The position numbers and the translations under genes were made by a program. From Elsinoe ampelina (lineage: Eukaryota), in NCBI GenBank assembly GCA_010093995.1, contig ML992502.1:2612728-2676727 (forward strand): a stretch of DNA of 64,000 nucleotides, given 5' to 3'. Shown in pieces: positions 33,279-64,000 of this stretch (its first letter is position 1; every line of letters begins with the position of its first letter). Below the pieces are notes generated by a model that was given only the letters and a program-made list of their open reading frames with translations, was not told the origin of the DNA and searched no databases.

Positions 33279-35249
33279 CTACACGGTCTTGTTGCCGTCC
33301 CACTCTAGGCCAGTAATGGGAGATTTCGGCGCTTCTTGACCCTCCTCGACGTGAATGCTTCTGTCTCCGTCCTCGTCTTTACCCACATCCATTCCTTCCT
33401 CACCACCCTCCTTCTCCTCCTTTACACCAGCCACCTCCCCCTTCCCCTCCCCGTCCTTCCTCCTCAAAATCGCCAACGCCTCCACATGCGCCGTCTGCGG
33501 GAAAAAGTCCCACCCCATGAGACTCTCAATCTCGTACCTGCCCCCGTCCCCACACAAGACCCCAACATCCCTCGCCTGCGTATGCACATTACAGCTCACA
33601 TACACGACCCTCTTGGGTGCAAACCCCAACAACTGCGCCAAAAACGCCCCGTCGCACCCCTTCCTGCTCGGATCCAGCACCACGACCGTGTTATCGGCCG
33701 GGAAACCCCTCACGTGGGCGAAGATATCGCCGGCGTCGCCGGCGAGGAAAGCGCACTTGTCCTTGGGGATGTGGTTCAGCTCCGCGTTGCGGGAGGCGAA
33801 ATCGATGGATTGGGACGACGTGTCGATGCCGATTGTCCGCGTGAACATGTCGGCGAGGAAGACGGAGAAGAGGCCGGAGCCGCAGTAGGCGTCGACGAGG
33901 TGCGTGATGTTGTCCGGGTTGGGGTGCATGTCTGCGGAACTGAAGGGGGGGTGGAGGACGGGGGGCGGGCAGCGGATGTGGGATTTTATGTGGAGCAGGA
34001 AGGGGTATAGGATGGCTTCGTTGTTTTGGAAGAAGGCGCCGGCCGGGTTGTCGAAGCGGTGGGTGCCGACGTATTCGGTGCTGATGGCTTTGGGGTCGGT
34101 GATGCAGGTTTTGATCAGGTAGGAGAAGCCGTCGTCTTCCATGGTGAAGTCTTCGGGGTGTTCGGTTTTGAAGTCGGGGGCGAGCTTGTCGGCGTCGGAT
34201 TTGAGGAGTTTTTTGATGCTGCGGGCTTGGGTAGAGCCGATGCCTGAGTTGAGGCGGGCGCCAGGGTTGTCTTTTTCGATGGTGGTGGTGTTTTGGCGGC
34301 AGAGCAGGGTGGCGCCGCGGTTGTACTGGTCGAGGTTCTTTGCCACTCGTTTGCGTTCGCGCTTCATGCCTTTGCGTACTGCGTCGGTACCGATTGGGCA
34401 ATCTTCAATGTCCATTGTCTTGCGAGTGCCCTTTTGCATGAAGCCGATGGGCGGGACGTGCTCCCAGTTAGGCTTGTTGCCCTGTCGTCTGTCCCTACGA
34501 CCACCCGGTGGCCCATCGAAATGAGGAGTGAGCTTCGTCCGGTATCCATATGGTTCGGCAGATGGATGCGTGTCCCCAATGGTCGGGATCTTCGAGGCAG
34601 GTAACTTGGAGAAGTGCCGGTACGCCTTCTCAACAATGGTCTTCTTGTGCGCGAGTTGATCCTCCTCGCTCATCATCTGGAATTGGCAACCAGAACATTT
34701 GGCAAAGTACTGACATCGTATGAGATCATCATCTCGCTTCGAAGACTTCTTTATGACTTTGACAAAGTCCGCTACCGAGTATGGCTGTTGTCGGTCATGT
34801 CGAATAATCTTGGCCCGGATTTTGTCGCCAGGCACAACGAATGGTACAGCGACGACTTGTGCAGTGTCCGGTAGTATTGCTAGCCCATCTCCAGTCGAAG
34901 AAAGCTCCTCTATATCGAGATCGACTTCAGTAAACGGATCCGGTAGAGCATTCTGAGATTTGCCGTTCGCGTCGGCTTCGTCCTTGGGATTCAGAGAGTG
35001 CTTCTCCAACAGCTCTTGCACGTCCCTGATCAAGACATCTTCATTTGATCCCTCTGCAACGTCCGAGTTTGTCTTTTGCTTCTTGCTCCTTTTGAAGTGG
35101 CGTTTGCCCTCATTGAAGGATCTTTTATTCGACTGCTGAGACTGTGAGTGACCATTTGCCTGCTTCATTTCGACCATGACGGGAATCGCAGATTTGAATG
35201 TGCTGGACGACCGTGATAGAGCCCTAATTCCGCATCGCAAAGACAGCAT
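33279..35249 (-). CDS. TRM2: tRNA (uracil-5-)-methyltransferase Trm2
   Basis: TRAM domain (LSSTGDGLA...VPFVVPGD), CQYFAKCSGCQFQ, YGYRTKLTPHF, FFQNN, LVDAYCGSGLF, DPSRKG, YVSCN and DFFPQTAHVE. Confidence 0.95.
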   Translation of the reverse strand: MLSLRCGIRALSRSSSTFKSAIPVMVEMKQANGHSQSQQSNKRSFNEGKRHFKRSKKQKTNSDVAEGSNEDVLIRDVQELLEKHSLNPKDEADANGKSQNALPDPFTEVDLDIEELSSTGDGLAILPDTAQVVAVPFVVPGDKIRAKIIRHDRQQPYSVADFVKVIKKSSKRDDDLIRCQYFAKCSGCQFQMMSEEDQLAHKKTIVEKAYRHFSKLPASKIPTIGDTHPSAEPYGYRTKLTPHFDGPPGGRRDRRQGNKPNWEHVPPIGFMQKGTRKTMDIEDCPIGTDAVRKGMKRERKRVAKNLDQYNRGATLLCRQNTTTIEKDNPGARLNSGIGSTQARSIKKLLKSDADKLAPDFKTEHPEDFTMEDDGFSYLIKTCITDPKAISTEYVGTHRFDNPAGAFFQNNEAILYPFLLHIKSHIRCPPPVLHPPFSSADMHPNPDNITHLVDAYCGSGLFSVFLADMFTRTIGIDTSSQSIDFASRNAELNHIPKDKCAFLAGDAGDIFAHVRGFPADNTVVVLDPSRKGCDGAFLAQLLGFAPKRVVYVSCNVHTQARDVGVLCGDGGRYEIESLMGWDFFPQTAHVEALAILRRKDGEGKGEVAGVKEEKEGGEEGMDVGKDEDGDRSIHVEEGQEAPKSPITGLEWDGNKTV

Positions 35250-42729: not shown

Positions 42730-45700
42730 TCATGCCCGTCCTCCGCCGACCAGCTCGGCAATCTTGCCAGCTACCGCGCTTGGGTATCCTCTGCTGAGCG
42801 CTTCAGCAACAACGGCCTCAGCTCCGGCATGATCCTCGACGGCAAGATGCGCTCGGACCATGGCCTCGTAAGTGCTGGGCTCAAGGTGGTAGATGTCTAC
42901 CATACCAAAAGCCTCCTGAGCCTTGGCGAGATTCTTCTCCAAGGTCCAGCCGTGGATGAGAGCATTAACAATGTATGGTGTAAGTTCGACACGACGTTTG
43001 ATCATGTCAGAAAGGAGAGCGTCAGATTCTGTGACGCGGTGGTTGGCCACCAGAGATTCGAAGAGAGCTTGATAGATGCAGGGTTGAGGGCGAACACTGT
43101 GATCAGTGATGACCTGGTCGAATAGTGCTCGAGCACCATCCATGTCGTGCTTCACGCAACCCTTTGCATGAATAAGACTGGCGTAGTGCACGGCTTCGGG
43201 CTGCAGTCCTGCTTGCTTCATCTGGACCAGAACAGCCTCAGCAGCGGCCATGTCAACAGGCTGGATAGTAGCGTGGGTGTCGATCAGGAGCTTGAAAGTA
43301 TGAGCAGTGGGCTCAATGTTCAGCTTGCGCATCCTTTCGTAGTAAGCAAGCACCTTTGACTTATCCCGTTTCGTGGTGAGGAAGAACTGCATCAAGCTGT
43401 GATATGGTGCTGGTCGCGGCTTGTAATTATTGCTGGCTTCCATTTCCTCGAAAATCTCCTCGGCGAACTTGTCATCACTGACACGGCAGAGAGCATTGAC
43501 AATCGTGCCGTATGTGACCGAGGTGGGGCGAATACCTAGGTTCCTCATCTCGGCAAAGTAGAATAGGCAGTCATCGATGCGACGGGCCTTTCCAAGCTTG
43601 CCGATCAGAGCGTTGTAAAGGAACGAGGTAGGCTCAACACCTTCCGCTTTTGAGCGTAGAAAAATCTTGACGGCCTCACTGGCTTCATCGAACGTCTTCG
43701 TGGTCTCCTTGAGTGACGTGATGTAAAGACCAAAAGTGTTCGCAGAAGGCGCCGCACCCATGTCGAGCAGATCCTGGTGGTATTTGGCTGCGAGTTCACG
43801 TCGTCCAGTAGTGATGCACGCCGAGACCATAGAATCGAGTATGGCAATCCAGCCGTGTCGAACAATGCGATACTGGTGTAGCAATGGCACGTCCTGCTTT
43901 GCCATCTCGAGTACTTCCTGAGCAGTGTGAAGCTGATTGGCCTTGGCTGCAGCCTGGATGAGCTTGCCGTAGGCGAAGAACCGAGGATGACGACCGGCGC
44001 GGCGAATGTTCCTGAATTTGGTGAGTGCCTCGCTTAAGACAGCTGCAGGACGAGCATGGCTCTTCTCCAGAATGTCGGTAATGACAACAGATCCTTTGTG
44101 GTCGGTCTGAGCAATGTACGGATCGAATGAGTCGTCATACATGGTCTGAGGGGGAGCCGGTGCGACTGGGGAATATGTTGGATAAGTGGTGACCGATGAG
44201 AAATGAGGCGCAACGGGGTAGCGATAGCCATTCCAAAGTCGGCTTAGATCAATGTCGTTGACGGTAGCAAGACCTTGCTCAATGAGCTTCTGCGTCGCCA
44301 CATCAGGTAGGACGGAGCGGCCGATGATGTTCTCAACCATGCAGGCAAATCTGGCAGGACCGGCGACATCTTGCGAGCCTTCCAAGAGGTGCATAGCTTG
44401 AACTTGGGTGAAGATATCCAGGTCAGCAGAGTCCATGCTTGCGATCTGTGAGGCACCAAGCATGGAAAGCAGGGGCTCGGTGTGGGCCAGTGAGTGCATT
44501 CCATTGTCATTCATCATCCGCAGCAACTCAGCTGAAGCTTCTGGTGGTGTAGAAGTGCCGTTGGTGGTATGTAGGGCCTTTGCCATGACTTCGATTGCCT
44601 CTTCGATCCTCTCTGCAGCTTCACGACCTTCCGCCGACTTTGCGTCGAAATTGCCACGGTATTTTGACAAAAGAGCGCGTGCTGGACGGAGGCCTTGCAT
44701 GAGCTGACCGTTCTGGATCAGGATCTGTGCTCTCAAGGCAGACAATTGCACCACCTCGAGATTCGCTGGTGCCTGCTCAACAATAGTCCAGAAACGATCC
44801 CCGCTTTCCACATTGCCGTTCCTGATGCGAAGCGCGAAGATGGCCAGGGCTGAGCCGGAGAGATCTGCATCGATCTCAACAAGAGCATCGAACGCCTTTA
44901 TGGATTCCGCTGCGTTTCCGAGATCCGCTGTCTTTACGGCGATGGTCTCAAGCGCGCTCGGATAGTGCTTGGCAGACATGTCGTTGACCATCTTGTAGAC
45001 TGCATCAAAGTTGCCAGATTCGAGCTCCAAAGGCAGTATGCTTTTCGACACTACTGCACCAAGAGAGATGTGTTGCGAGCCATTGGCCTTCTCCTCCACT
45101 TTGACGCGGGCAAGAAGCTTCTTGCCGTCCACAAGTCGTCCCGCTTGACCGTATGCACGGACTAGAGCAGCGTAGATTTCGGTGTCTATCCTGTCCATAG
45201 TTATCTCTCCTGCATTGTGAGCGATAGCCATCTCACGATACTCGTCGTACGAAGAGACGGCGTTTTTAAGATCTCCAGCCTCACCAAAAGCCTTGATCAT
45301 GGCCGGATAGGTGCTGGAACCAATAGACACCCCTTGTCCGCGAGAAACGTTGTACAAGTCGATCATATCTGAAACCTGTCCACGTACAGCACAAGCCGTG
45401 ATGAGAGCTTCAAATGCAGTGCCCGGGAGCTTGACAGCCTTTGAGGCAGGGCTGTTAAGGAACTTGAGGGCGATTCCCAGCGATTGATCTTCCGACATCA
45501 TCTGGTACTCCAGATCGTCAAGCGTGAACGACGTGGCGTGAGGTCCAAGTCGACTGCGCCTTTCCAGTAGCATTTGCGAAGACTTTGCTGCATCCAGAGC
45601 TCGGATTGCAAGAGTGTCCACAATCATAGACATGGTATCCGCATCGGGCACCACGCTACGGCGCATCATGTCGGCATAGATGTCGAGGACTCGCGGTGCC

Positions 45701-46536
45701 TTTTGGTGCTTGTTGTCTGTGAGCTCGACCGCGGAGGTGAGAAGAGCGCGGTAGGCCTGCTGGGATGGCTTGGCGACTCCATCGCGCAGCATGGATTCGA
45801 AGAGGACCGGGATCTGAGCGTATTGTCCAGCCTGACGCAACTGTTCAATCTGCGAGCTGTAGAAATCTGCGCGTGCCTCGGCCAGAGTATGCTCGGATTG
45901 CTTTGACGAAACAATTTCGAGTCCATCCTGCTCTTCGGCCGCGGCCAAGGGTGAATCGCGTCGAATGCGCTCACCTGCAATGCTTTCGTTGACTTGAGCG
46001 AAGGCGGCGGCTTCGGCTTCCACATTGTCTATAGCTTTTGCAAAGTTATCCACCGCGCTTGTGGAGTAGGATCTCTTCAGGTTCGAGGGTTCCTCAATCG
46101 CTTCGTAAGCGGCGTTTTGCGGATTCGCCTCCTGGGCGTCGACTGGGGTATTCTGAGGACCGGGGATGGTAGTCGGTGGCTTCCATCCGACCCTCTTTGC
46201 CAGCGACTGGTGATGCCATTCTCTTGCCTCTGATTTGTGGTGTTTCTGCCACGCCTCATGATAATGCGCTAAACCAGACTCGAGATGACCGTCCTTTGCA
46301 GCCGAGCCATCGGTGGCCTGGCTAGCGACAGTGCTGAAGTGTGCATGTTGGCTTGACTTTGGCTTCTCCTTGAAGCGACTGAGGAAGTTGGAAGCAAGGG
46401 GGGCGACTGGGGTATTCTGAGAAGCGTAGGAGGATTGGGACGCGGCGACGACAGTCTGAGCGTATCCGTGGGTAAAAGATTTGAGGGCAGTGCCGGCGAG
46501 ACGGGAGACGTGTACTGTCGACTTGGGCAAAACCAT
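42730..46536 (-). CDS. Large mitochondrial pentatricopeptide-repeat protein (Ppr5-like)
   Basis: 1268-aa ORF with tandem PPR motifs (FLYNALIGKLGKARR, VTYGTIVNALCR, PYHSLMQFF, HYASLIHAKG). A probable 49-nt 5'-UTR intron lies at 46576-46624. Confidence 0.88.
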   Translation of the reverse strand: MVLPKSTVHVSRLAGTALKSFTHGYAQTVVAASQSSYASQNTPVAPLASNFLSRFKEKPKSSQHAHFSTVASQATDGSAAKDGHLESGLAHYHEAWQKHHKSEAREWHHQSLAKRVGWKPPTTIPGPQNTPVDAQEANPQNAAYEAIEEPSNLKRSYSTSAVDNFAKAIDNVEAEAAAFAQVNESIAGERIRRDSPLAAAEEQDGLEIVSSKQSEHTLAEARADFYSSQIEQLRQAGQYAQIPVLFESMLRDGVAKPSQQAYRALLTSAVELTDNKHQKAPRVLDIYADMMRRSVVPDADTMSMIVDTLAIRALDAAKSSQMLLERRSRLGPHATSFTLDDLEYQMMSEDQSLGIALKFLNSPASKAVKLPGTAFEALITACAVRGQVSDMIDLYNVSRGQGVSIGSSTYPAMIKAFGEAGDLKNAVSSYDEYREMAIAHNAGEITMDRIDTEIYAALVRAYGQAGRLVDGKKLLARVKVEEKANGSQHISLGAVVSKSILPLELESGNFDAVYKMVNDMSAKHYPSALETIAVKTADLGNAAESIKAFDALVEIDADLSGSALAIFALRIRNGNVESGDRFWTIVEQAPANLEVVQLSALRAQILIQNGQLMQGLRPARALLSKYRGNFDAKSAEGREAAERIEEAIEVMAKALHTTNGTSTPPEASAELLRMMNDNGMHSLAHTEPLLSMLGASQIASMDSADLDIFTQVQAMHLLEGSQDVAGPARFACMVENIIGRSVLPDVATQKLIEQGLATVNDIDLSRLWNGYRYPVAPHFSSVTTYPTYSPVAPAPPQTMYDDSFDPYIAQTDHKGSVVITDILEKSHARPAAVLSEALTKFRNIRRAGRHPRFFAYGKLIQAAAKANQLHTAQEVLEMAKQDVPLLHQYRIVRHGWIAILDSMVSACITTGRRELAAKYHQDLLDMGAAPSANTFGLYITSLKETTKTFDEASEAVKIFLRSKAEGVEPTSFLYNALIGKLGKARRIDDCLFYFAEMRNLGIRPTSVTYGTIVNALCRVSDDKFAEEIFEEMEASNNYKPRPAPYHSLMQFFLTTKRDKSKVLAYYERMRKLNIEPTAHTFKLLIDTHATIQPVDMAAAEAVLVQMKQAGLQPEAVHYASLIHAKGCVKHDMDGARALFDQVITDHSVRPQPCIYQALFESLVANHRVTESDALLSDMIKRRVELTPYIVNALIHGWTLEKNLAKAQEAFGMVDIYHLEPSTYEAMVRAHLAVEDHAGAEAVVAEALSRGYPSAVAGKIAELVGGGRA

Positions 46537-54075: not shown

Positions 54076-55359
54076 ATGACAACCGCTTTCGACGACCGCA
54101 CAAAGACTCTCCTTACTTCTTCCTACCCTGGCATTGACCTCTCCGCCTCGCCTGCCGAGCTGTCCAAGGCTACTTTTGCAGACCAGTCATACACTCCAGC
54201 CGAAGAGCAGGACATCTCAGCATGGCTCAAGAAGTCTTCAAATGTTGAGTCAAGCGTGCCAGAGCTCAATAGCCACCTCTCCTCCCGCACGACTGTCATT
54301 GGCTCAAAGCCGTCGATAGCAGATGTAGCCTTGTACTCGAAGCTAGCACCCCTCGTGTCATCTTGGAGCGACGAGCAACGGACAGGAAAGGACGGTCATC
54401 ATCACATTGTGCGATTCGTCGACTATGTACAGAACGCGGATATCTACAAGCTTAAGATTACAGACTCGGACAAGGTCAAGATCGACGCCGACAAGGTTCT
54501 CTCTCCCATACCACCGGTCGACCCGAAGGCCGAGAAGGAGCGCAAGAAGAAGGAGAAGGAAGCCGCCGCTGCCGCCGCCGGAGGTGCAGCCAGCACAAAC
54601 GCTGGCAAGGAGAACAAGTCTCTGCCCGAGCGTGTTAAGGAGAAGGCCAGCGAGGCAAAGGACAAGGTAGCGGCGGCAGTCACGGGTGAAGCTGGGGCAC
54701 CTCAAAAGAAGAAAGAGAAGGCGCCCAAACAGCCCAAGCCACAAAAGGCGGCGCCAGTGGAGAAGCCCCTTTCCCCTTCTCTTATCGACCTCCGCGTAGG
54801 TCACATCCTCAAGGCCGTCAATCACCCCAATGCCGACAGTCTTTACGTCTCGACGATCGCATGCGGCGACGCGCCTGGCACCGATAACACGAGTGAATAT
54901 GAAGGCCAAGTCGTGCGGACAGTGTGCTCTGGTCTGAATGGCCTTGTACCGCTCGAGTCGATGCAAGGGCGCAAGATCGTGGCTGTGTGCAATCTCAAGC
55001 CTGTGACGATGCGAGGGATCAAGTCAGCTGCGATGGTACTTGCTGCTTCACCGCGCCTGAAGGAAGGTGAAACGGACGACCACAAGGGACCGGTCGAGCT
55101 CGTGGAGCTGCCAGAGACCGCCAAGGCCGGCGACAGGGTGTACTTTGAGGGCTGGGAGGGAGAGCCAGAGCCGGTGCTGAACCCGAAGAAGAAGCAGTGG
55201 GAGGCGGTACAACCAGGATTCACGACGACCGAGGGTGGAGAAGTGGCATTTGATCCGGAGGGCACGGAGGGATTAAAGGGCAAGGGCAGTTTTGGAAAGC
55301 TGATGGTGGGAGGGAAGGTGTGCACTGTGCCCACGCTCAAGGGGGCGACGGTGAGGTAA
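54076..55359 (+). CDS. ARC1: tRNA-aminoacylation cofactor Arc1
   Basis: GST-like N-domain, Lys/Ala-rich linker and EMAP-II-like domain (IDLRVGHILKAVNHPNADSLYVS, CNLKPVTMRGIKSAAMVL, LNPKKK). Confidence 0.93.
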   Translation: MTTAFDDRTKTLLTSSYPGIDLSASPAELSKATFADQSYTPAEEQDISAWLKKSSNVESSVPELNSHLSSRTTVIGSKPSIADVALYSKLAPLVSSWSDEQRTGKDGHHHIVRFVDYVQNADIYKLKITDSDKVKIDADKVLSPIPPVDPKAEKERKKKEKEAAAAAAGGAASTNAGKENKSLPERVKEKASEAKDKVAAAVTGEAGAPQKKKEKAPKQPKPQKAAPVEKPLSPSLIDLRVGHILKAVNHPNADSLYVSTIACGDAPGTDNTSEYEGQVVRTVCSGLNGLVPLESMQGRKIVAVCNLKPVTMRGIKSAAMVLAASPRLKEGETDDHKGPVELVELPETAKAGDRVYFEGWEGEPEPVLNPKKKQWEAVQPGFTTTEGGEVAFDPEGTEGLKGKGSFGKLMVGGKVCTVPTLKGATVR

Positions 55360-56954: not shown

Positions 56955-58234
56955 ATGACGCCGCCGCAAACAGACTCGGGCGTAAGTGTTATTCCGTTCT
57001 CGACAAACTCCCCTTACCCAGCCATGTCCCTACTGCAAACCGTTCCTTCAGCTCCTGCCGCCCCCGCAAAAAAACCCCAAAAACGCTCAGACGAGTCAGT
57101 CAGCTTCTCGTTCTTCAAGACTGACAATGTCTACCACAGGCCTCATCACCTGTTGGCGGCGGCTCGGTGACGTCCAAGGCAAAGGCTGAGAAGATATCCA
57201 ATCTCGTCAGGACCAGAGAGAATCAACGGAGATCGCGCGCTCGCCGGAGAGAGTACATCGCCGGCCTCGAAGCCAAATACCGCAGATATGAAGCCATGGG
57301 AGCGGAAGCCAGTGTGGAAATACAACAAGCTGCCAGAAAAGTGTTGGAAGAGAACAGACGTCTGCGCAGCATCATACAGGAGTATGGTCTGAAGGTGGAG
57401 GAGAACGAAGAACGTCCAACGGAGAAGGTCGAGAGTCTGCTCTCCAGGAAGCGGACATTGGAGGACGATGGAACGCTACCTACCGGGCGATCAATCGCGC
57501 TTAAGCCTGCCTCGGGCTTGGAAGAAGTCGCTGAGCGCTCAGCCTCGGTCGTCGCCGCCGCCAGACCTACCATTGGCACAGCGCAGTCAAGTGTCACCGC
57601 GACACCGCAGCCCCAACGACAACAGCTGACATTGGTCACACCGAAGATAGAGCCCGGACTGGAGACATTCGATCACGATGGATGGGAGTCGGACTCGGCC
57701 AATATGCAGACCCCTCTGCGCCAGATGGCTTCTGGGCAAGAGGCATGGAGTGCACCTCCTACAGGTCCCTCCCATCCCTACCAAGCACAGCAAAATTGGG
57801 CACCTCACATCACGGGCATGAGTCTAGATGCGCAAGAACTCGCAGCAGCAGCAGGTCTGTCGTTGTCAGACCCCAGCATACGCTATCTCCTCACGGACCC
57901 CGACACCCTCCTCAAGCAAATGTACGGCCTGCCTGCGGAAAGCTACCAGCAGAGCCAACGACAAGTCGGCTATCAAAGCTTGACAGGTCCTGCAAGCTCA
58001 CACTCCGACGCCGAGTTCCACTGGGGCATTTCTCAGCCCCAACACCATCCCTCGGCCTCACAACAGCAGCAGCATCCACAAATGGCCCATTCTCAGCATC
58101 CGTCGCAAATGAACACACCACAAATGGGCGTCCCTCAACCTCATCAGCAGATACAACACCAGACCAACCATCAATACCCCCAAGGTCAAGGCCAAATGTA
58201 TCCTCCACCAGGATACCAATATCCGCAACGCTGA
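56955..58234 (+). CDS. bZIP transcription factor with Gln-rich C-terminus
   Basis: Exon 1 MTPPQTDSG, intron 56982-57139 (GTAAGT..CTGAC..CAG), then the basic region RTRENQRRSRARRREYIAGLE and zipper ARKVLEENRRLR. Confidence 0.82.
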
Positions 58235-59196
58235 AAATCCCTCATCCGTAACAGCACTGGATGAGCCCTGCATTTGCCCGGCACTTATGACCGGCATGTG
58301 GCGTATCCCAAAGCGTAATACAGCCCCAAACGCCCAACATAGGCGGTCCAGTATAGCCAGAGTTTGCGTGGCGTCAATGCGGCGTCGTAGCCCTGGGTAT
58401 AGGGCTGATGTTCTGCATGATACACGTGCTTTCCTGATTCCGGTTTCGGGTTGGGTGATTGATAAGGGTGTCTTCTATGAATAGCTTCACGCGCCAAGAT
58501 CAAGCTGCAAGTGAGGCGAGGGCACGATTGAACGTGTAGTACAGCATGGAGCTTCCTTTGGACCGGCGAGGGCGGGGTGAGGTCTGTCAGCTAAAACAGG
58601 CAATGTTGCTTGCTTCGCCTGCTGGCGAGAACGGAGTACATATTGGGAGAGGAACATCCATCATCAATGCCATGGGGAGCCCTCAACTAATCAATCTCGA
58701 CTCGTGGCAGTCACCGCCACCGCCACCTCTCCATCCCTTGATCGGCTTCGGGAGCGACTGGATCTGTCTCAACGGACGGTACAGCCAGCCACGCCTGACA
58801 CAAGCGACAGGCAATTATTCCTGCGCCGGAGACCGCGGGTGCTTGCAACCTCCCAGTGAGGCGCTCAGTTGATCAGCGAGGGACGGAGTCGGTCATCGAG
58901 GCACGCAGGGAGAGAAATGGGGAAGCTTGGATGGGCGCCGGGCACAGTGATCGAGAGGTCCAGCGCCGCCCACGTCCGTCGGAGGGCAGAGAAACAGGGC
59001 CGAGGTTGCTTCCGAGACACCTTGTACGTCGTGAAGTCGCTTCATGGCATGATCTTGCACGAGCCGTGTCATGGCTTTGGAGCAAGGATACGGAGTGCCG
59101 CCTTTGAGCAAGGACAAGGGCTACAGGCGTGGCAGAGATCGCAAGCAGAGACTGGATGGGGCACATGAAGGTATGAAAGCTGATTCTGATTGATCA

Positions 59197-59230
59197 GGCT
59201 GGATGCAGGATGCAGGATGCTGGACGCAGG
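59197..59230. repeat. Short 7-bp microsatellite (GGATGCA/GGATGCT)
   Basis: ggctggatgcaggatgcaggatgctggacgcagg. Confidence 0.55.
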
Positions 59231-59517
59231 GCATTGAGTCGCGCCGACCCTGTCCTCGTCTCTCAAGCGGTGATGAAACCGAGCTAGTCTGCCGAACCTC
59301 TACCGTGAGGATTCCCTGATAACGCCTACGCTAAATAAAGATTACAACACCCCGTTATCCTTGTGATTCTGTCCATTCCCACTCCTGCGAGGCAGATCGC
59401 TCGTGTCTTGCCATGCCGCCGTCGTCGTTGCACAAGCCACATGACGCACCTGGTCCAGATGCCAATCCTGCCTCGTCCGTCGCTCTTCCCCACTCCGCCT
59501 GCGGCAAAAGCTCCCAC

Positions 59518-61384
59518 CTACCCGTCGAGATTCATAAACTCCTCCAACCCGTCCCCACCTTGGCCCCTCTGCCCCTGCGCTCGCCCCTGCCCTGCTCCCT
59601 CCTGCCCCGACCCCTCCCTCCACCCCCCCGGCACCGCACCCCCCAACGCCTCCCCCCTCGTCTCCCGCCTCACCTCCCTCACTTCCCCCGCTCCACTCCC
59701 CGGCGCCCTCACACAGTCTAGCCGCCCATTCATCTTGGGTCCCATCTCCCCGGCCTCTCCCCTCGCGAGCTCCGCTTCCCATGCCGCGCTCCCGTTCATG
59801 ACGGGGAAGAGGAGGGTGGTTTCGTACCACCTCCCTTTTATCTCGTGCGTGGCGACGGAGACGGAGGGGCGGGTGAGGATGTAGGTGGAGTGGCTGGCTT
59901 TCAGGCGGGTGGTGGTGGCGTTGCGGAGGGTGAGGTCGTGGGTGAGACGGGTGGGGAGAGAGGCGGGGTGGTCGATGGAGGAGGTGGAGGGGAGGGTGCG
60001 GAGGGTGTACGTGTCTCCTTGTAGGGATAGGGAGCGGGACAGGATGGCGTTGTTGAAGGCGGAGGTTTGGGTTGTTTCGGTGATGCCGTGGAGGATGAGG
60101 ATGTCGAGACTGTTGGGCGTGGAGCTGGTGCGTAGGCGGACGGGGTCGCCGATCCAGAGGCGTTCGGCGCCGAGGTAGAGGCCGTTGTAGGTTGTTGTGG
60201 TGCCGGTTGAGGAAGGCGTGGTGGTAATGGGCTCGAAGGGGGTGAAGGAGATATCGATGGCTTTGGCGGCGAGGATGGAGCCGTCGACTTCCATGTCACC
60301 TTCGCCGTACTTTTTGGCGTAAATGCCTTGCCAGTCGGCTGTGTCGAAGCTAACGGGCATGCCATTGAGAGCAGGGTGGGTGAAACTTGGGACTGACCAC
60401 GCAAGCCAGGGGCGGAGCAGAGATTCGGATGTGATGGTCACTGCTGGTGGGTGCTGATACGGGTGAGATAGTGGTTGGATCAAGAAAGCTGGCGAGCTTG
60501 GCCCAGTCTGGTTCTGGAACCAGCGACGTGTGATGACTCCGAGACCCCATCTAGTGCCTCTGTTGAACCATACCAGCTCGCCTTGTCGAAAGATTGAAGT
60601 ACCGTAGGTCATGTCGAGCCGCTGGTCTTCATTCTTGGGCGTGAGATCTGGACGACCCGCGCGATGTGTGAGTGGTGCCCTGTCGCCAGTTGTAGCAGGT
60701 TTCGTGTCTTGCTGTGATGACTGTCGTTGCATAGACACCCTTTGTGCAGGCTCCGGTTTGACTACCTTGGTCTCTTGTTTTACCTCTTTCTTGGCCTCCT
60801 TCTTGATAGCTTGCAGTGATTTGTCGTCAATCTCTTCCGGACAGCATATCTTGCACCAGCAGTTGTCTGGATCTCCATCCTCATCTGTAGCCAGCCATAA
60901 CAAATGTGGATAGAAGTCTGCCGGGCTCCTGAACCGTTTCCTCTTTCCAAGTGGATGTCCATACAGATAGGCGTCCTGTCGTTCATTTCCACCACCTGCA
61001 TGGTTCTTCACGGTCTTTACTGCTTTCGACTCGTCCTCTGCTCGCTTGACGTGCTCGTAGAGTCGATAGTTCTCTGGAAAGCTCGCAAGCATGTACCCCC
61101 GCTCTATCACGATCAGCACATGTGGCATTGTGGATTGGAGGCAGCTCACCTGGATCTGCTTGGCCCATATCTCGTGCTAGCATACCGCCGAGCTTCCTCC
61201 TCCAGTCGAGATGCTTCTGCTCGTCCATGTCCACCTCGCGATAGTAGTCACTGATGCCATTGGCATCGGGCTTGCGGTCGAGCTGATCTGGTGTCGGCTC
61301 ATTCTTCTCTTTGATCTTGTGCCGATTCACAATGTTGATTTTGCCATCCGACCGAGACACATACAAAGGGAAGAAGCGACCCAT
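59518..61384 (-). CDS. CLR2: Cryptic loci regulator 2 (SHREC silencing complex) homolog
   Basis: WRRKLGGML, FPENYRLYEH, DAYLYGHPLGKRKRFRSPADFYPHLLWL...CWCKIC, FRQGELVW and YNGLYLGAERLWIGDPVRL; one intron near 61100-61149. Confidence 0.88.
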
Positions 61385-62001
61385 GATGCTGAAGGTCGCA
61401 TGTGTGCGGTGGTAAGATGCTCTGGTTTCTTGACATTGAATTTACAGTCGGCCGGGTTCACGTCGGAGTTAAGCAGCGCGATATAAATCCCCACCCCAGT
61501 CAACTTCCAGTTTCATTGTTTCCTCCCTTGACCGCAATATCAGGTAGTTGGGAATGTCCCATCTCGATTTCTGGTATGCATGCATTTGAAAATAGCTCCG
61601 TGGTCGAGAGGAATAGAGACTTCGTGACTGATGGCCCGGGTACGGGTCTGGTAGTATATCTCCCCATGTTTCTTTGATTTTACATCAAAACCTCCCAAAG
61701 AATAGATAGTGACGCTCAGAGCATCGGTGAAGATGTACCGGTGACATTCTTGGACGGTTGAGAAAATGGCGAAGAATCAGATGCGCAAAAATCAGGAGAC
61801 AACATAGATATCCCTACCACTGCTAGCAGGTAGTGGGGGCTTGATTTGCATGACGGCAGGAGAGACATATCACAAGAGATGGCAGGTGCTCGTTTCAGCA
61901 GTACGTTACTATGATCGATACGTGTGGGCTGTGAAGTCTTTGTGGCATGTGACGCCCCCCTGAGGAAGTATATATTGTTTTTCAACCTTCTATCTTCCAA
62001 T

Positions 62002-62165
62002 CTACAGAGGCTTCCGTATACTTTGCCAGACTCATCGTCTGGTTCAGATGCCAGAAGTCTACTGTAGCCCCGAATCACAACGAGCGAAAAGCGCCCCGAA
62101 ACTCTGCTAGCCAGATGTAGAGGCGCTCAGAGCTCGTTTGAGCCCTGCTTAGCAGGTTGCTTTTT
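62002..62165 (+). ncRNA. Candidate structured ncRNA, copy 1 (Pol III-like signals)
   Basis: Direct repeat of 62761-62918 with conserved stems and variable loops; TATATA at 61969, T5 at 62161 and GGTTCGATTCT at 62199. Confidence 0.55.
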
Positions 62166-62760
62166 GCCACTTTGGCATGCAAATGGGCGGCGGTTCTTGG
62201 TTCGATTCTGTGCTATGCGATGTTCTTTTTGAGGCAATTTTCAGCATCGTGTTGGACAAGTGACGTGTCTCTTTGCTTGTCCTCTCCCATCACCAAAGCT
62301 TCTGGATACGAGTATTCACCGGTGCGACATTTTTGGTAGATATTTTGATGCTGATGTCATCGTGATCAAAGAATTCAATGAGTAGTGACTTTGAATGAGG
62401 AATCTTCGTGTAGCGAGCCAAAGGAGGCGCACAGTTGGTAGTCGATTATGATTGCACGATTTGCACAGGGGACCTCATCTGTGAGCGGATGTCCGTTACC
62501 TAGCCACACAGTAGTCCCTTGTAGAAACAGATAGAGCACTCACCATTACGATGGCAGCGGAATGACTTCCTCTTGCAAGATGAGCGCTGCTCACGGCGAG
62601 AACGAACGACACCGATACTGCAAGTTACAGGTCTTGTCTTTGTGAGTTGGGCAATGGGCATTTGGCATGTGATATTGCAAGCAATCCAGCCTGCGATATG
62701 CAAGTCATACCACATTGGTGCATGACATTATATAGTTATCAGTCGTCCCTTTTCCTCATC

Positions 62761-62918
62761 CTACAATGCTTCCGTATACTCTGCCAGATCCGTCTGGTCC
62801 AGATGCCAGACATTGTAGCCTCAAATCACAACGAGCGAAAAGTTCCCCGAAAACTCTGCTAGCCAGATGTAGAGGAGCTCAGAGCACGTTTGAGCCCTGC
62901 CGAGCAGGTTGCTTTTTT
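62761..62918 (+). ncRNA. Candidate structured ncRNA, copy 2 (Pol III-like signals)
   Basis: Direct repeat of 62002-62165; TATATA at 62729, T6 at 62913 and GGTTCAATTCT at 62963. Confidence 0.55.
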
Positions 62919-63179
62919 GTTGTTCTCGGTGTCAAATCACGTGATGTTGTAGCAGGCACGTGGGTTCAATTCTCATCAGCCGACTTATTTTTGAGCGAAA
63001 TAGTCTTCATTAGTCTAAAAATAATGGCATCGTAGCAGTTCAGAAAATAACTAGGTAGTTTGCCGATTAGAAGAAATTCGTCATGTGACGCTCGCCCCCC
63101 CAAGGACTGCCCCCGTGAATTCAACGCCTTAGATAACTACAATCTATCCCACTAGATCGAAACTTCATCCATTTTTATC

Positions 63180-64000
63180 ATGCCTTCTGCAGTGGAACAA
63201 GCCTTGGTGACACTTGTGCCGTCTGTCAATAATCTTCCCATCGAATTGACGAGTCTTGCCAATGCGTTGTTGATGCAATCTCGCTCAAAAGCAGCGAAAC
63301 TCAAACCTGACGAGGAGATCGCCAGAACATATGTCTGCAGTCACATTGCTTGCGAAAGGTAAGTTCTGAGCGTGTCTGATCATGTCATAGTCGCGAATGA
63401 CGACGAAGGCTAACGTGGACGGCACAGGCTCAAGTCTCGACTCGGTTTAGAAATACAGCCACGACCGCCGGTCCCACCACGAGTGTACAAGAAGCTCAAA
63501 GCATTCTTTGACAAGCAACTTGATGTCCCATCGACTCCGAGCGCCGTTCGTCAGGTCGATGCGCTCAACCGAAGTGGTGCGGATAGCTCACGTAAAGCTA
63601 CCCCCGCTTCAAACAGGAGTGCGGTGACGCCGTCGTCCCGCAAACGCCTCCGTGATACCCAAGACGACACTCCGAGCAAGACTCCCGCCGGTGTTGTGCT
63701 ACCGGAGACTGGAGGTGACGATGCGGACACCCCATCTCGAAGGTCCGAGAAGCGTGCTCGCCCATCATCAGCCAAGGATCTAGCTGAGCTCGCAGCCGGC
63801 GCCACGAAGTCACCGAACCGCAAGTCTGGGAGGCTGTTCGCACCATCTCCGAATAAGCAGAATGCGCCACCTGAGTGGGTAGATGACATGATTGCAAGAC
63901 TGGCAAACAAATTTGAGGCTCCTGCCGCCACCCATATTCGCGCCGGCCTTGACCATGTTCTCGCAGTGCGAGGCTTCTCGATCGAAGATGCGCTGGATGC
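63180..64000 (+). CDS. ORC6: Origin recognition complex subunit 6 (5' part, runs off the window)
   Basis: VEQALVTLVP...LANALLMQSRSKAAKLKPDEEIARTYVCSHIACER, intron at about 63359-63428, then LKSRL...PRPPVPPRVYKKL. Confidence 0.88.

Follow-up and report, generated by a model that had tools for sequence, protein, structure and literature searches.

The divergent intergenic region of 2 kb between Clr2 and ORC6 contains two direct copies of a candidate structured RNA gene of about 160 bases, both on the plus strand, at 62000-62165 and 62758-62918 of the window (the whole stretch of DNA that was analysed, 64 kb in length). The host is a filamentous-type ascomycete. Clr2 occupies 59518-61128 on the minus strand and ORC6 starts at 63180 on the plus strand; Pfam confirmed both neighbours, between which a preliminary description of this DNA had placed the locus. 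The features of the first unit are as follows.

61943..61952, plus strand: upstream motif TGGCATGTGA, a putative element at about -57 from the inferred start
61969..61976, plus strand: TATA box TATATATT, 31 nt ahead of the first conserved base (the start being set at the conservation boundary)
62000..62165, plus strand: RNA copy 1, about 166 nt, starting at the first conserved A and including the T5 run, both ends placed at conservation boundaries
62002..62067, plus strand: long imperfect 5' hairpin with 26 pairs, -30.9 kcal/mol, z -5.9, 0 of 200 shuffles as stable
62073..62091, plus strand: 19-nt block identical in both copies, partly paired in the copy 1 fold
62102..62156, plus strand: three short hairpins grouped at the 3' side (6, 7 and 5 pairs), from folds and alignment
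62161..62165, plus strand: T5 run followed by G, putative primary Pol III terminator, coinciding with the conservation boundary
62199..62209, plus strand: B-box-like motif GGTTCGATTCT, 34 nt past the T5 run
62226..62230, plus strand: second T5 run, putative fail-safe terminator; an RNA-derived contig ends at 62231

The second unit repeats this arrangement.

62663..62672, plus strand: upstream motif TGGCATGTGA, a putative element at about -95 from the inferred start
62729..62735, plus strand: TATA box TATATAG, 29 nt ahead of the first conserved base (again from the conservation boundary)
62758..62918, plus strand: RNA copy 2, about 161 nt
62761..62818, plus strand: 5' hairpin, -20.6 kcal/mol, z -4.6, 0 of 200 shuffles as stable
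62824..62842, plus strand: the identical 19-nt block, single-stranded in the copy 2 fold
62854..62908, plus strand: 3' three-hairpin cluster, from the minimum-energy fold and alignment
62913..62918, plus strand: T6 run followed by G, putative terminator, from T-run positions
62963..62973, plus strand: B-box-like motif GGTTCAATTCT, 45 nt past the T6 run
62988..62992, plus strand: second T5 run, from the repeat comparison and T-run positions

When each copy was compared with the 64-kb window by blastn, the other copy was the sole substantial match (62002-62165 against 62761-62917, 86.7% over 165 columns, E 3.5e-49), and all remaining matches of either copy within the window were at most 22 nt long. 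A covariance model built from the copy pair found no third copy within the window. Short repeats had hinted at a third, diverged copy at 61696-61924; this candidate was rejected, as the best local alignments scored 22-25 and the shuffle mean was about 22. In the global alignment of the two copies 145 of 158 aligned columns are identical (92%), with 13 substitutions and 8 + 3 indel bases. The RNA block is selectively conserved: its alignment has a z-score of 25.9 against shuffles, and the similarity ends exactly at the T runs. The 100 nt upstream of the copies align at shuffle level (z 0.8), and neither the stretch from the first to the second T run (z 1.1) nor the 100 nt past the second T run (z 0.9) aligns better than shuffles. 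Conservation is thus confined to the block from the putative start to the T run, a pattern compatible with purifying selection, or with gene conversion, on a transcript. The two diverged direct copies and the otherwise diverged flanks of the preliminary description are both upheld by these comparisons.

The duplicated blocks lie in a common frame of motifs. The hexamer TATATA occurs six times in 64 kb, twice at the locus (61969 and 62729). The pattern GGTTCRANTCY, based on the B-box consensus, has exactly two matches on both strands of the 64 kb, namely GGTTCGATTCT and GGTTCAATTCT. Both motifs (GGTTCRATTCT) are on the same strand and in the same place in the unit, 34-45 nt 3' of the T run, and in both units the second T5 run follows 25-27 nt after the motif, in the common context TT(C/A)TTTTTGAG. 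This promoter-like architecture, with a TATA box at -30, an oligo-T end and a downstream B-box-like motif, is real, and its placement is far beyond chance. The U6/SNR6-like layout noticed earlier was recovered in all its elements: TATATA about 30 nt upstream of each copy, a T5-6 run closing each copy, and GGTTC(G/A)ATTCT followed by T5 in both flanks. Candidate intragenic A boxes were also considered; the best conserved matches agree with the A-box consensus in 8 of 11 positions, at 62040/62795 and 62108/62860.

The 5' part of both copies folds into a hairpin (58-66 nt long, 20-26 pairs). The copy 2 hairpin is shorter because 4 nt are absent from its 3' strand, and due to this deletion the middle of the stem is not conserved. 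The inner arms of the two copies share 95% identity, and the outer stem carries a double compensatory exchange, G-C to A-U, seen in the folds. The long 5' stem with its compensatory change (G-C to A-T in the DNA) had been proposed before; the exchange and the stability of both hairpins relative to shuffles support it.

The best-conserved part of the copies is the 3' 100 nt, outside this hairpin. The whole copy 1 fold has a z-score of -5.5; taken by itself, the 3' domain exceeds its shuffles in stability by only a small margin (z -2.3 and -1.35). Here the earlier proposal of three consecutive 3' hairpins held in part. All three are seen in the minimum-energy fold of copy 2, and their stems contain no substitutions between the copies; however, the minimum-energy fold of copy 1 prefers an alternative long-range helix. 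An alternative helix, 62090-62095/62122-62127, bears a double compensatory change, G-C to U-A (62093/62124). The RNA also contains three conserved GCCAGA motifs and a single UCUGG strand, for which these motifs could compete, and this might give a conformational switch.

The 13 substitutions largely avoid or compensate predicted pairs (P about 0.01-0.02). Two of the 13 break pairs in the minimum-energy structure of copy 1, where 6.3 would be expected (P 0.012), and one breaks a pair in the structure drawn in the preliminary description, where 4.9 would be expected (P 0.017); these counts were made from coordinates on structures that came from the same two sequences, and the support is that of two paralogues. 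The earlier statement that the differences spare the pairing agrees with both counts.

A protein-coding explanation was rejected. No ORF of at least 50 aa overlaps copy 1, and the 54-aa and 89-aa ORFs over copy 2 had no Pfam match, so that the region was correctly described as having no credible ORF. Moreover, no reading frame is conserved, and the indels between the copies are not multiples of three.

No known RNA family was recognised at the locus. The search with the covariance models of Rfam 15 (4227 models) gave no matches in the whole window at the gathering score and none in 58000-64000 at E up to 1; at E up to 10 there were five unrelated weak matches, none of them common to both copies. 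There was no match to the Rfam models of U6, other spliceosomal snRNAs, RNase P/MRP, SRP RNA, U3, snoRNAs, Y, vault or 7SK RNA. Impressions of a resemblance to U3, U1, U4, U5 and MRP RNA were discarded, as no model matched. ARAGORN predicted no tRNA genes in the locus at the default and 90% thresholds. At the relaxed 80% threshold it reported tRNA-like shapes at 62126-62220 and 62896-62984, each ending 21 nt past the start of the B-box-like motif. However, there were 38 such calls across the 64-kb window, the locus being no richer than other regions, and thus the two calls are not significant. The stretch around the B-box-like motif has no stable fold (z +1.2 and -0.14), and hence a downstream tRNA-like element or minihelix, called by ARAGORN at the threshold of 38 calls per window alone, was rejected. 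Nor does the RNA look like a box C/D or H/ACA snoRNA: judged by reading the sequence, UGAUGA, CUGA and ANANNA are absent from the required places and the 3' end lacks a nearby ACA, and no snoRNA model of Rfam matched both copies.

Because no Rfam family or tRNA matches, the conclusion that the RNA is no known family in Rfam 15 stands, and the failure to match tRNAs, spliceosomal snRNAs or RNase P/MRP, reported at the outset from the letters alone, was reproduced by both programs. The invariant 19-mer was found in five metagenome loci, but these share the 19-20-mer alone and read as protein-coding DNA of other organisms; they are chance matches and not homologues. A full-text literature search with a 16-nt part of the invariant block gave no matches, and a literature search for Pol III ncRNAs of filamentous fungi yielded analogues only. 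Several of the Afu RNAs of Aspergillus fumigatus have Rfam models, whereas the Rfam 15 models gave no match to the present copies. Afu-182, Afu-202, Afu-254 and others are, according to PMC2377427, intergenic unclassified ncRNAs of 100-300 nt, similar to the present RNA in being small, intergenic, without a known class and from a filamentous ascomycete; they differ in that Pol III is mentioned nowhere in that paper.

A trace of expression was found in run X1, which behaves as RNA (a spliced ORC6 contig and an adapter are present), although no run is recorded as RNA. A 162-nt contig from this run covers 62070-62231, two thirds of copy 1; it continues past the first T5 and breaks off at the second one. 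The contig has a depth of 3.3, is unstranded and comprises neither the 5' hairpin nor copy 2, and contigs cannot define transcript ends. Runs X2-X4 gave no contigs on this stretch. A further unassigned contig lies just upstream of the locus, at 61696-61924.

The earlier interpretation of the locus is partly supported: its two paralogues are probably Pol III genes, each with a split promoter of the SNR6 type, that encode a lineage-specific structured small RNA. Under this reading, which draws on sequence features, the upstream TATA box would position TFIIIB about 30 nt ahead of the start, and the B-box-like element 3' of the terminator would recruit TFIIIC. Transcription would start near A62000 and A62758; most transcripts would end at the T5 or T6 run, and some would continue to the second T5 just past the B box. 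The predicted product of 161-166 nt would begin with the long 5' hairpin, continue with the 19-nt invariant linker and the compact group of 3' hairpins, and end in an oligo-U tail. La and Lsm-type proteins bind 3' oligo-U tails on other Pol III RNAs, and we infer that they would bind this tail as well. Protein or RNA partners may contact the product at the invariant linker and at the three GCCAGA motifs. The product would most likely be a stable, lineage-specific RNP RNA, the main rival being a Pol III-made microRNA-like precursor.

The closest known promoter is that of SNR6, the U6 gene of S. cerevisiae, which has a TATA box upstream, terminates at an oligo-T run and carries its B box past the terminator, within the 3' trailer (PMC5356446). 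The present units resemble it in all three respects, and their product would likewise be small and structured and end in oligo-U. However, the RNA is not U6, as it had no Rfam match to U6 even at E 10; the units have no clear intragenic A box (at best 8 of 11 positions); and the B-box-like motif is a mere 34-45 nt past the terminator, with a further T5 run behind it. According to the same source, T5 is enough to terminate transcription in S. pombe, and a 5T terminator is stronger when the next base is G (PMC5356446). Both T runs at the ends of the present copies have G next.

Among filamentous ascomycetes, the nearest analogues are the Neurospora milRNA precursors. Pri-milR-1 is a Pol III-dependent transcript of about 170 nt that depends on a TATA-like element; T stretches lie downstream of all of milR-1 to -4, and milR-4 is co-transcribed with tRNAs (PMC3547838). 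One possibility is therefore that the present genes are Pol III-transcribed milRNA precursors whose 5' hairpin is cut by Dicer and loaded into Argonaute, as with pri-milR-1. Indeed, each copy is a short Pol III-type unit of comparable length with a TATA-like element, a terminal T cluster and a hairpin, the inner arms of which are nearly identical between the copies, and TATA-like elements are needed for pri-milR-1 (PMC3547838). On the other hand, the best-conserved 3' 100 nt lie outside the hairpin and would be unneeded by a milRNA precursor, whereas the middle of the hairpin stem, with its 4-nt deletion in copy 2, is not conserved. Moreover, no A or B box is predicted for milR-1, whereas a B-box-like motif is conserved in the present units, and the published milR-1 qPCR and mutagenesis primers are, judged by reading, unlike the copies (PMC3547838). 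We consider a milRNA precursor unlikely.

A Pol II origin, either as a small ncRNA or as part of a longer ncRNA or UTR transcript in the Clr2/ORC6 region, with the T runs and the B-box-like motif being incidental, has a low probability. A TATA box at -30 fits Pol II as well, the contig at 62070-62231 ignores the first T run, the unassigned contig 61696-61924 lies just upstream, and Pol II-promoter-type motifs (E-box-like and CATGTGACGC) crowd the region. However, incidental motifs would hardly account for two B-box-like motifs that are the sole ones in 64 kb and have the same place and strand in both units; conservation ends exactly at the T runs, the same contig ends at the second T5, and no conserved Sm-type site with a 3' stem-loop follows the T run (downstream flank z 1.1). 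The locus could also be a duplication without function, or what is left of a mobile element (SINE- or tRNA-derived) or of an RNA that was retro-copied. This would be consistent with two adjacent copies being the only ones known and with the relaxed tRNA-like shapes; the latter, as noted, are not significant at 38 calls per window. But the block is still 92% identical in the two copies, amid flanks that have diverged to noise, and a retro-copy would not share the TATA box, the B box, the second terminator and the upstream 10-mer. Besides, there are no more than the two copies in 64 kb, no direct repeats bracket the units, and the B box lies outside the unit on its 3' side and not within it as in dispersed repeats. 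Such an origin is very unlikely. Least probable of all is a role at the DNA level, in which two units bound by TFIIIC and Pol III would insulate the divergent promoters of Clr2 and ORC6 from each other, or mark a chromatin boundary between them, with the RNA as a by-product. Extra-TFIIIC sites, weakly transcribed tRNA-gene relics and extra-transcriptional effects of Pol III complexes are known (PMC5356446), and a B box with T5 25-27 nt further on resembles the 3' end of a tRNA gene, but this would not explain why 160 nt of transcribed sequence are so strongly conserved or why the substitutions spare the pairing.

The universal Pol III set consists of tRNA, 5S, U6, RNase P RNA and SRP RNA. To our knowledge, the fungal Pol III transcriptome is hardly charted beyond budding and fission yeast. 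The few additional fungal products in PMC5356446 and PMC3547838 are RNA170, tRNA-gene relics, snR52 and the Neurospora milRNAs. RNA170, ZOD1 and the YGR033C locus, the latter two being tRNA-gene relics, are small orphan yeast transcripts of Pol III associated with TFIIIC (PMC5356446). Like them, the present RNA would be a small Pol III product outside the universal set with TFIIIC sites, Pol III and TFIIIC being predicted here; they are set apart as single, weakly expressed budding-yeast loci, whereas here there are two paralogues with a conserved block and structure-sparing substitutions.

If the RNA is real, it would add to filamentous fungi a new regulatory or RNP RNA, made by Pol III, that is conserved, structured, duplicated and driven by a clean U6-type promoter. 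The promoter would be a second natural one that combines a TATA box with a downstream B box, and could be useful for guide-RNA expression, and the orphan RNA lends itself readily to knock-out and pull-down work. The interest would be modest if the RNA is just a milRNA precursor or an oddity of one species. More tentatively, and as a possibility that we hold somewhat below even chances, the two genes may be founding members of an undescribed, lineage-specific family of structured Pol III RNAs of filamentous ascomycetes, with a U6-like external promoter and an RNP of its own. The functional sites of such a family would be the invariant 19-nt linker and the three GCCAGA motifs, and it would be a fungal counterpart, in kind and not in ancestry, of animal 7SK, Y or vault RNA.

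Some further motifs were observed around the units. The octamer ATGCAAAT is not enriched near them (3 matches, 1.9 expected). The upstream motif TGGCATGTGA is an exact 10-mer repeat at 61943 and 62663, and its degenerate form TGGCATGYRA has three matches in the window, all on the plus strand and all within the locus.

Both RNA copies sit between two genes 2 kb apart, one of the Clr2 family (minus strand) and one of the ORC6 family (plus strand). The window has a G+C content of 54%, contains no N, and is fungal; the tRNA methyltransferase encoded there groups with Ascomycota proteins. Each copy, together with its TATA sequence, T runs and B-box-like motif, is called a unit. The features of the locus are as follows.

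59518-61128, minus strand: Clr2-family gene (Pfam)
61943 (unit 1) and 62663 (unit 2), plus strand: upstream 10-mer TGGCATGTGA, exact in both units
61969 (unit 1) and 62729 (unit 2), plus strand: TATATA, 31 nt and 29 nt ahead of the first conserved base
62161-62165 (T5, unit 1) and 62913-62918 (T6, unit 2), plus strand: first T run, followed by G
62199 (GGTTCGATTCT, unit 1) and 62963 (GGTTCAATTCT, unit 2), plus strand: B-box-like motif, consensus match
62226-62230 (unit 1) and 62988-62992 (unit 2), plus strand: second T5 in the common context TT(C/A)TTTTTGAG
from 63180, plus strand: ORC6-family gene (Pfam)

A BLASTN search of the whole window with each flanked copy paired 62002-62165 with 62761-62917 (86.7% over 165 columns, E 3.5e-49), in agreement with the two direct copies of the preliminary description; apart from the partner, all matches were at most 22 nt long. 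A covariance model derived from the two copies found no third one in the 64 kb. In the global alignment of 62000-62165 with 62758-62918, 145 of the 158 aligned columns are identical and 13 are substitutions. The similarity is restricted to this block of about 160 nt, and the flanks have diverged. The alignment score of the block is 25.9 sd above shuffles; scores that cannot be told from shuffles were obtained for the 100 nt ahead of it (z 0.8), for the 65-74 nt separating the two T runs (z 1.1) and for the 100 nt that follow the second run (z 0.9). For the 300 nt upstream the score is marginal (z 2.6, matched by 2 of 300 shuffles). Within the block, 19 nt between the 5' hairpin and the 3' domain are invariant, and all three GCCAGA motifs are conserved (62025, 62050 and 62110 in copy 1; 62783, 62805 and 62862 in copy 2).

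The 5' third of each copy forms a long imperfect hairpin (-30.9 kcal/mol, z -5.9 in copy 1; -20.6 kcal/mol, z -4.6 in copy 2), and in neither case were any of 200 shuffles equally stable. The compensatory change described in its outer stem, G-C to A-U, is present, and the loops indeed differ between the copies. The inner stem, GCCAGA(C)/(G)UCUGGU with 6-7 pairs, is the same in both, as are a 4-pair and a 2-pair helix, whereas the 7-pair middle helix of copy 1 is largely absent in copy 2 owing to a 4-nt deletion. Thus the hairpin is kept, though not all its helices. Since a single UCUGG strand serves three GCCAGA motifs per copy, alternative pairings are possible.

For the 3' domain there are two competing descriptions. 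The three consecutive hairpins proposed initially are found in the minimum-energy fold of copy 2, and their stems are without change; however, copy 1 folds differently. Its minimum-energy fold and the RNAalifold consensus contain a long-range helix enclosing the first 3' hairpin. This alternative helix shows C-G to U-G and G-C to U-A changes between the copies, and a substitution disrupts a single pair in its outer extension. The substitutions are compatible with both descriptions. Folded by itself, the 3' domain has only a weak stability advantage over shuffles (z -2.3 and -1.35). As had been claimed, the differences spare the pairing: the 13 substitutions break one pair of the initially proposed structure (5' hairpin plus three 3' hairpins) against 4.9 expected (permutation test, P 0.017), and two pairs of the copy 1 minimum-energy structure against 6.3 expected (P 0.012). 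This support is modest, the structures having been derived from the very two sequences tested.

Despite the diverged flanks, the short plus-strand elements follow in identical order in both units. TATATA occurs six times in the 64-kb window against 1.5 expected, and there are 24 runs of T5 or longer on its plus strand. The B-box consensus used in the search, GGTTCRANTCY, has only two matches on both strands of the window, at 62199 and 62963, that is, 34 nt and 45 nt past the first T runs. Two window-unique motifs at these distances and on the right strand cannot reasonably be ascribed to chance. The distance separating the B box from the second T run is reminiscent of tRNA gene 3' ends. TGGCATGYRA has three matches in the 64-kb window (61943, 62173, 62663), all on the plus strand of the RNA locus: two lie at differing distances upstream of the TATA boxes, and the one at 62173 is in unit 1, past the proposed terminator and ahead of the B box.

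Known RNA classes gave no explanation of the copies. Rfam 15 had no matches at the gathering score in the whole window, as the lack of a known family in the preliminary description implied, nor at E up to 1 in 58000-64000. When the units were searched singly at E up to 10, five weak unrelated matches appeared (E 1.9-9.4), three of them on the opposite strand (two in unit 1, one in unit 2); none was common to both copies. With default settings, ARAGORN detects no tRNA in the window. At 80% thresholds it reports tRNA-like shapes ending 21 nt past each B-box start. However, this setting yields 38 calls per 64 kb and the B-box stretch has no stable fold, and therefore the B box was treated as a DNA element, not as a folded tRNA-like RNA. 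C/D and H/ACA snoRNAs are defined by their boxes, and neither arrangement was seen on reading the copies. The absence of a credible ORF holds for copy 1, which no ORF of at least 50 aa overlaps; copy 2 is overlapped by ORFs of 54 aa and 89 aa without Pfam matches. Any common reading frame is destroyed by the indels between the copies (8 and 3 bases, not multiples of three). The 19-mer occurs at five metagenome loci that share the 19-20-mer alone and look like coding DNA; they were rejected as homologues. A full-text literature search with part of the invariant block returned no paper. Literature searches and text passages of PMC2377427, PMC3547838 and PMC5356446 yielded analogues and not this RNA.

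According to the text of PMC5356446 that was covered, a tract of five T is enough to stop transcription in S. pombe, one of six in S. cerevisiae, and a following A or G makes a 5T tract a stronger terminator. The units reproduce the SNR6 layout described there (upstream TATA box, oligo-T terminator, B box past the terminator) except for a clear A box (best matches in the units, 8 of 11 positions), and hence we infer from sequence two paralogous Pol III genes. TFIIIC would bind the downstream B box, and TFIIIB would occupy the TATA sequence. Transcription would start near A62000 and A62758, the first conserved bases, and terminate at the T5 or T6 run, with part of the polymerases continuing as far as the second T5. 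An oligo-U tail would be expected at the 3' end of the product.

One of four sequencing runs compared with the locus has contigs there. None of the listed runs is recorded as RNA, but this one was treated as cDNA, as its contigs behave: that over ORC6 resembles spliced mRNA (2849 nt, adapter letters at 63167, departing from the genome after 63359). Position 63167 is the likely ORC6 mRNA 5' end, 13 nt ahead of the ATG at 63180, and 63359 a likely intron donor within the ORC6 domain. Another contig, 62070-62231 (162 nt, depth 3.3, no differences from the window), begins within copy 1, of which it covers the 3' two thirds, continues through the first T5 and the B box and stops one base past the second T5. 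Contigs cannot define transcript ends, strand or level, and this one suggests, as a hint only, that unit 1 is transcribed, with a leaky first T5 and a fail-safe second. The run does not cover the 5' hairpin or copy 2, and the other three have no contig on the locus.

The main rival is that the copies are milRNA precursors made by Pol III. In the part of PMC3547838 consulted, the primary milR-1 transcript of Neurospora measures about 170 nt and requires Pol III as well as TATA-like elements. A T stretch follows each of milR-1 to -4, and tRNAs are co-transcribed with milR-4. However, the best-conserved part of the copies is outside the hairpin, and the milR-1 primers printed there show no resemblance to them on reading. 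The RNA might still be identical to a milR locus published for another species, as milR sequences stand in figures. Further candidates are transcription by Pol II, a boundary element acting at the level of DNA, and a relic, either neutral or mobile. Conservation of the block in both paralogues and retention of the promoter frame in randomised flanks argue that both copies are kept for expression, and against one being a retro-copy or decaying duplicate. Given the sequence logic and the weak expression hint, it is credible that the locus carries orphan genes for a small Pol III RNA under a U6-type promoter. With low confidence, the product may be a stable RNP RNA, with the invariant linker and the GCCAGA motifs as its working surfaces.

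The cDNA-like run has a further contig at 61696-61924 (229 nt, depth 2.7, no differences), which is 570-800 nt ahead of the Clr2 start codon. This sequence has no Pfam-matching ORF and is unrelated to the RNA copies; it may belong to Clr2, as a 5' exon or UTR, or to another transcript. The window also encodes a 1268-aa PPR protein (42730-46536, minus strand) weakly matching the mitochondrial RNase P subunit RPM2 family, an Arc1p-like tRNA-binding protein (54076-55359) and a tRNA m5U54 methyltransferase (33279-35249), taken to be a chance cluster of genes related to tRNA. Finally, CATGTGACGC has only two exact matches in the 64 kb, at 61946-61966 and 63082-63106, the first 23 nt ahead of the copy 1 TATA and the second 85 nt ahead of the 5' end of ORC6. 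Both are followed by a C6-7 run and AGGA, and they may represent a common transcription-factor site.
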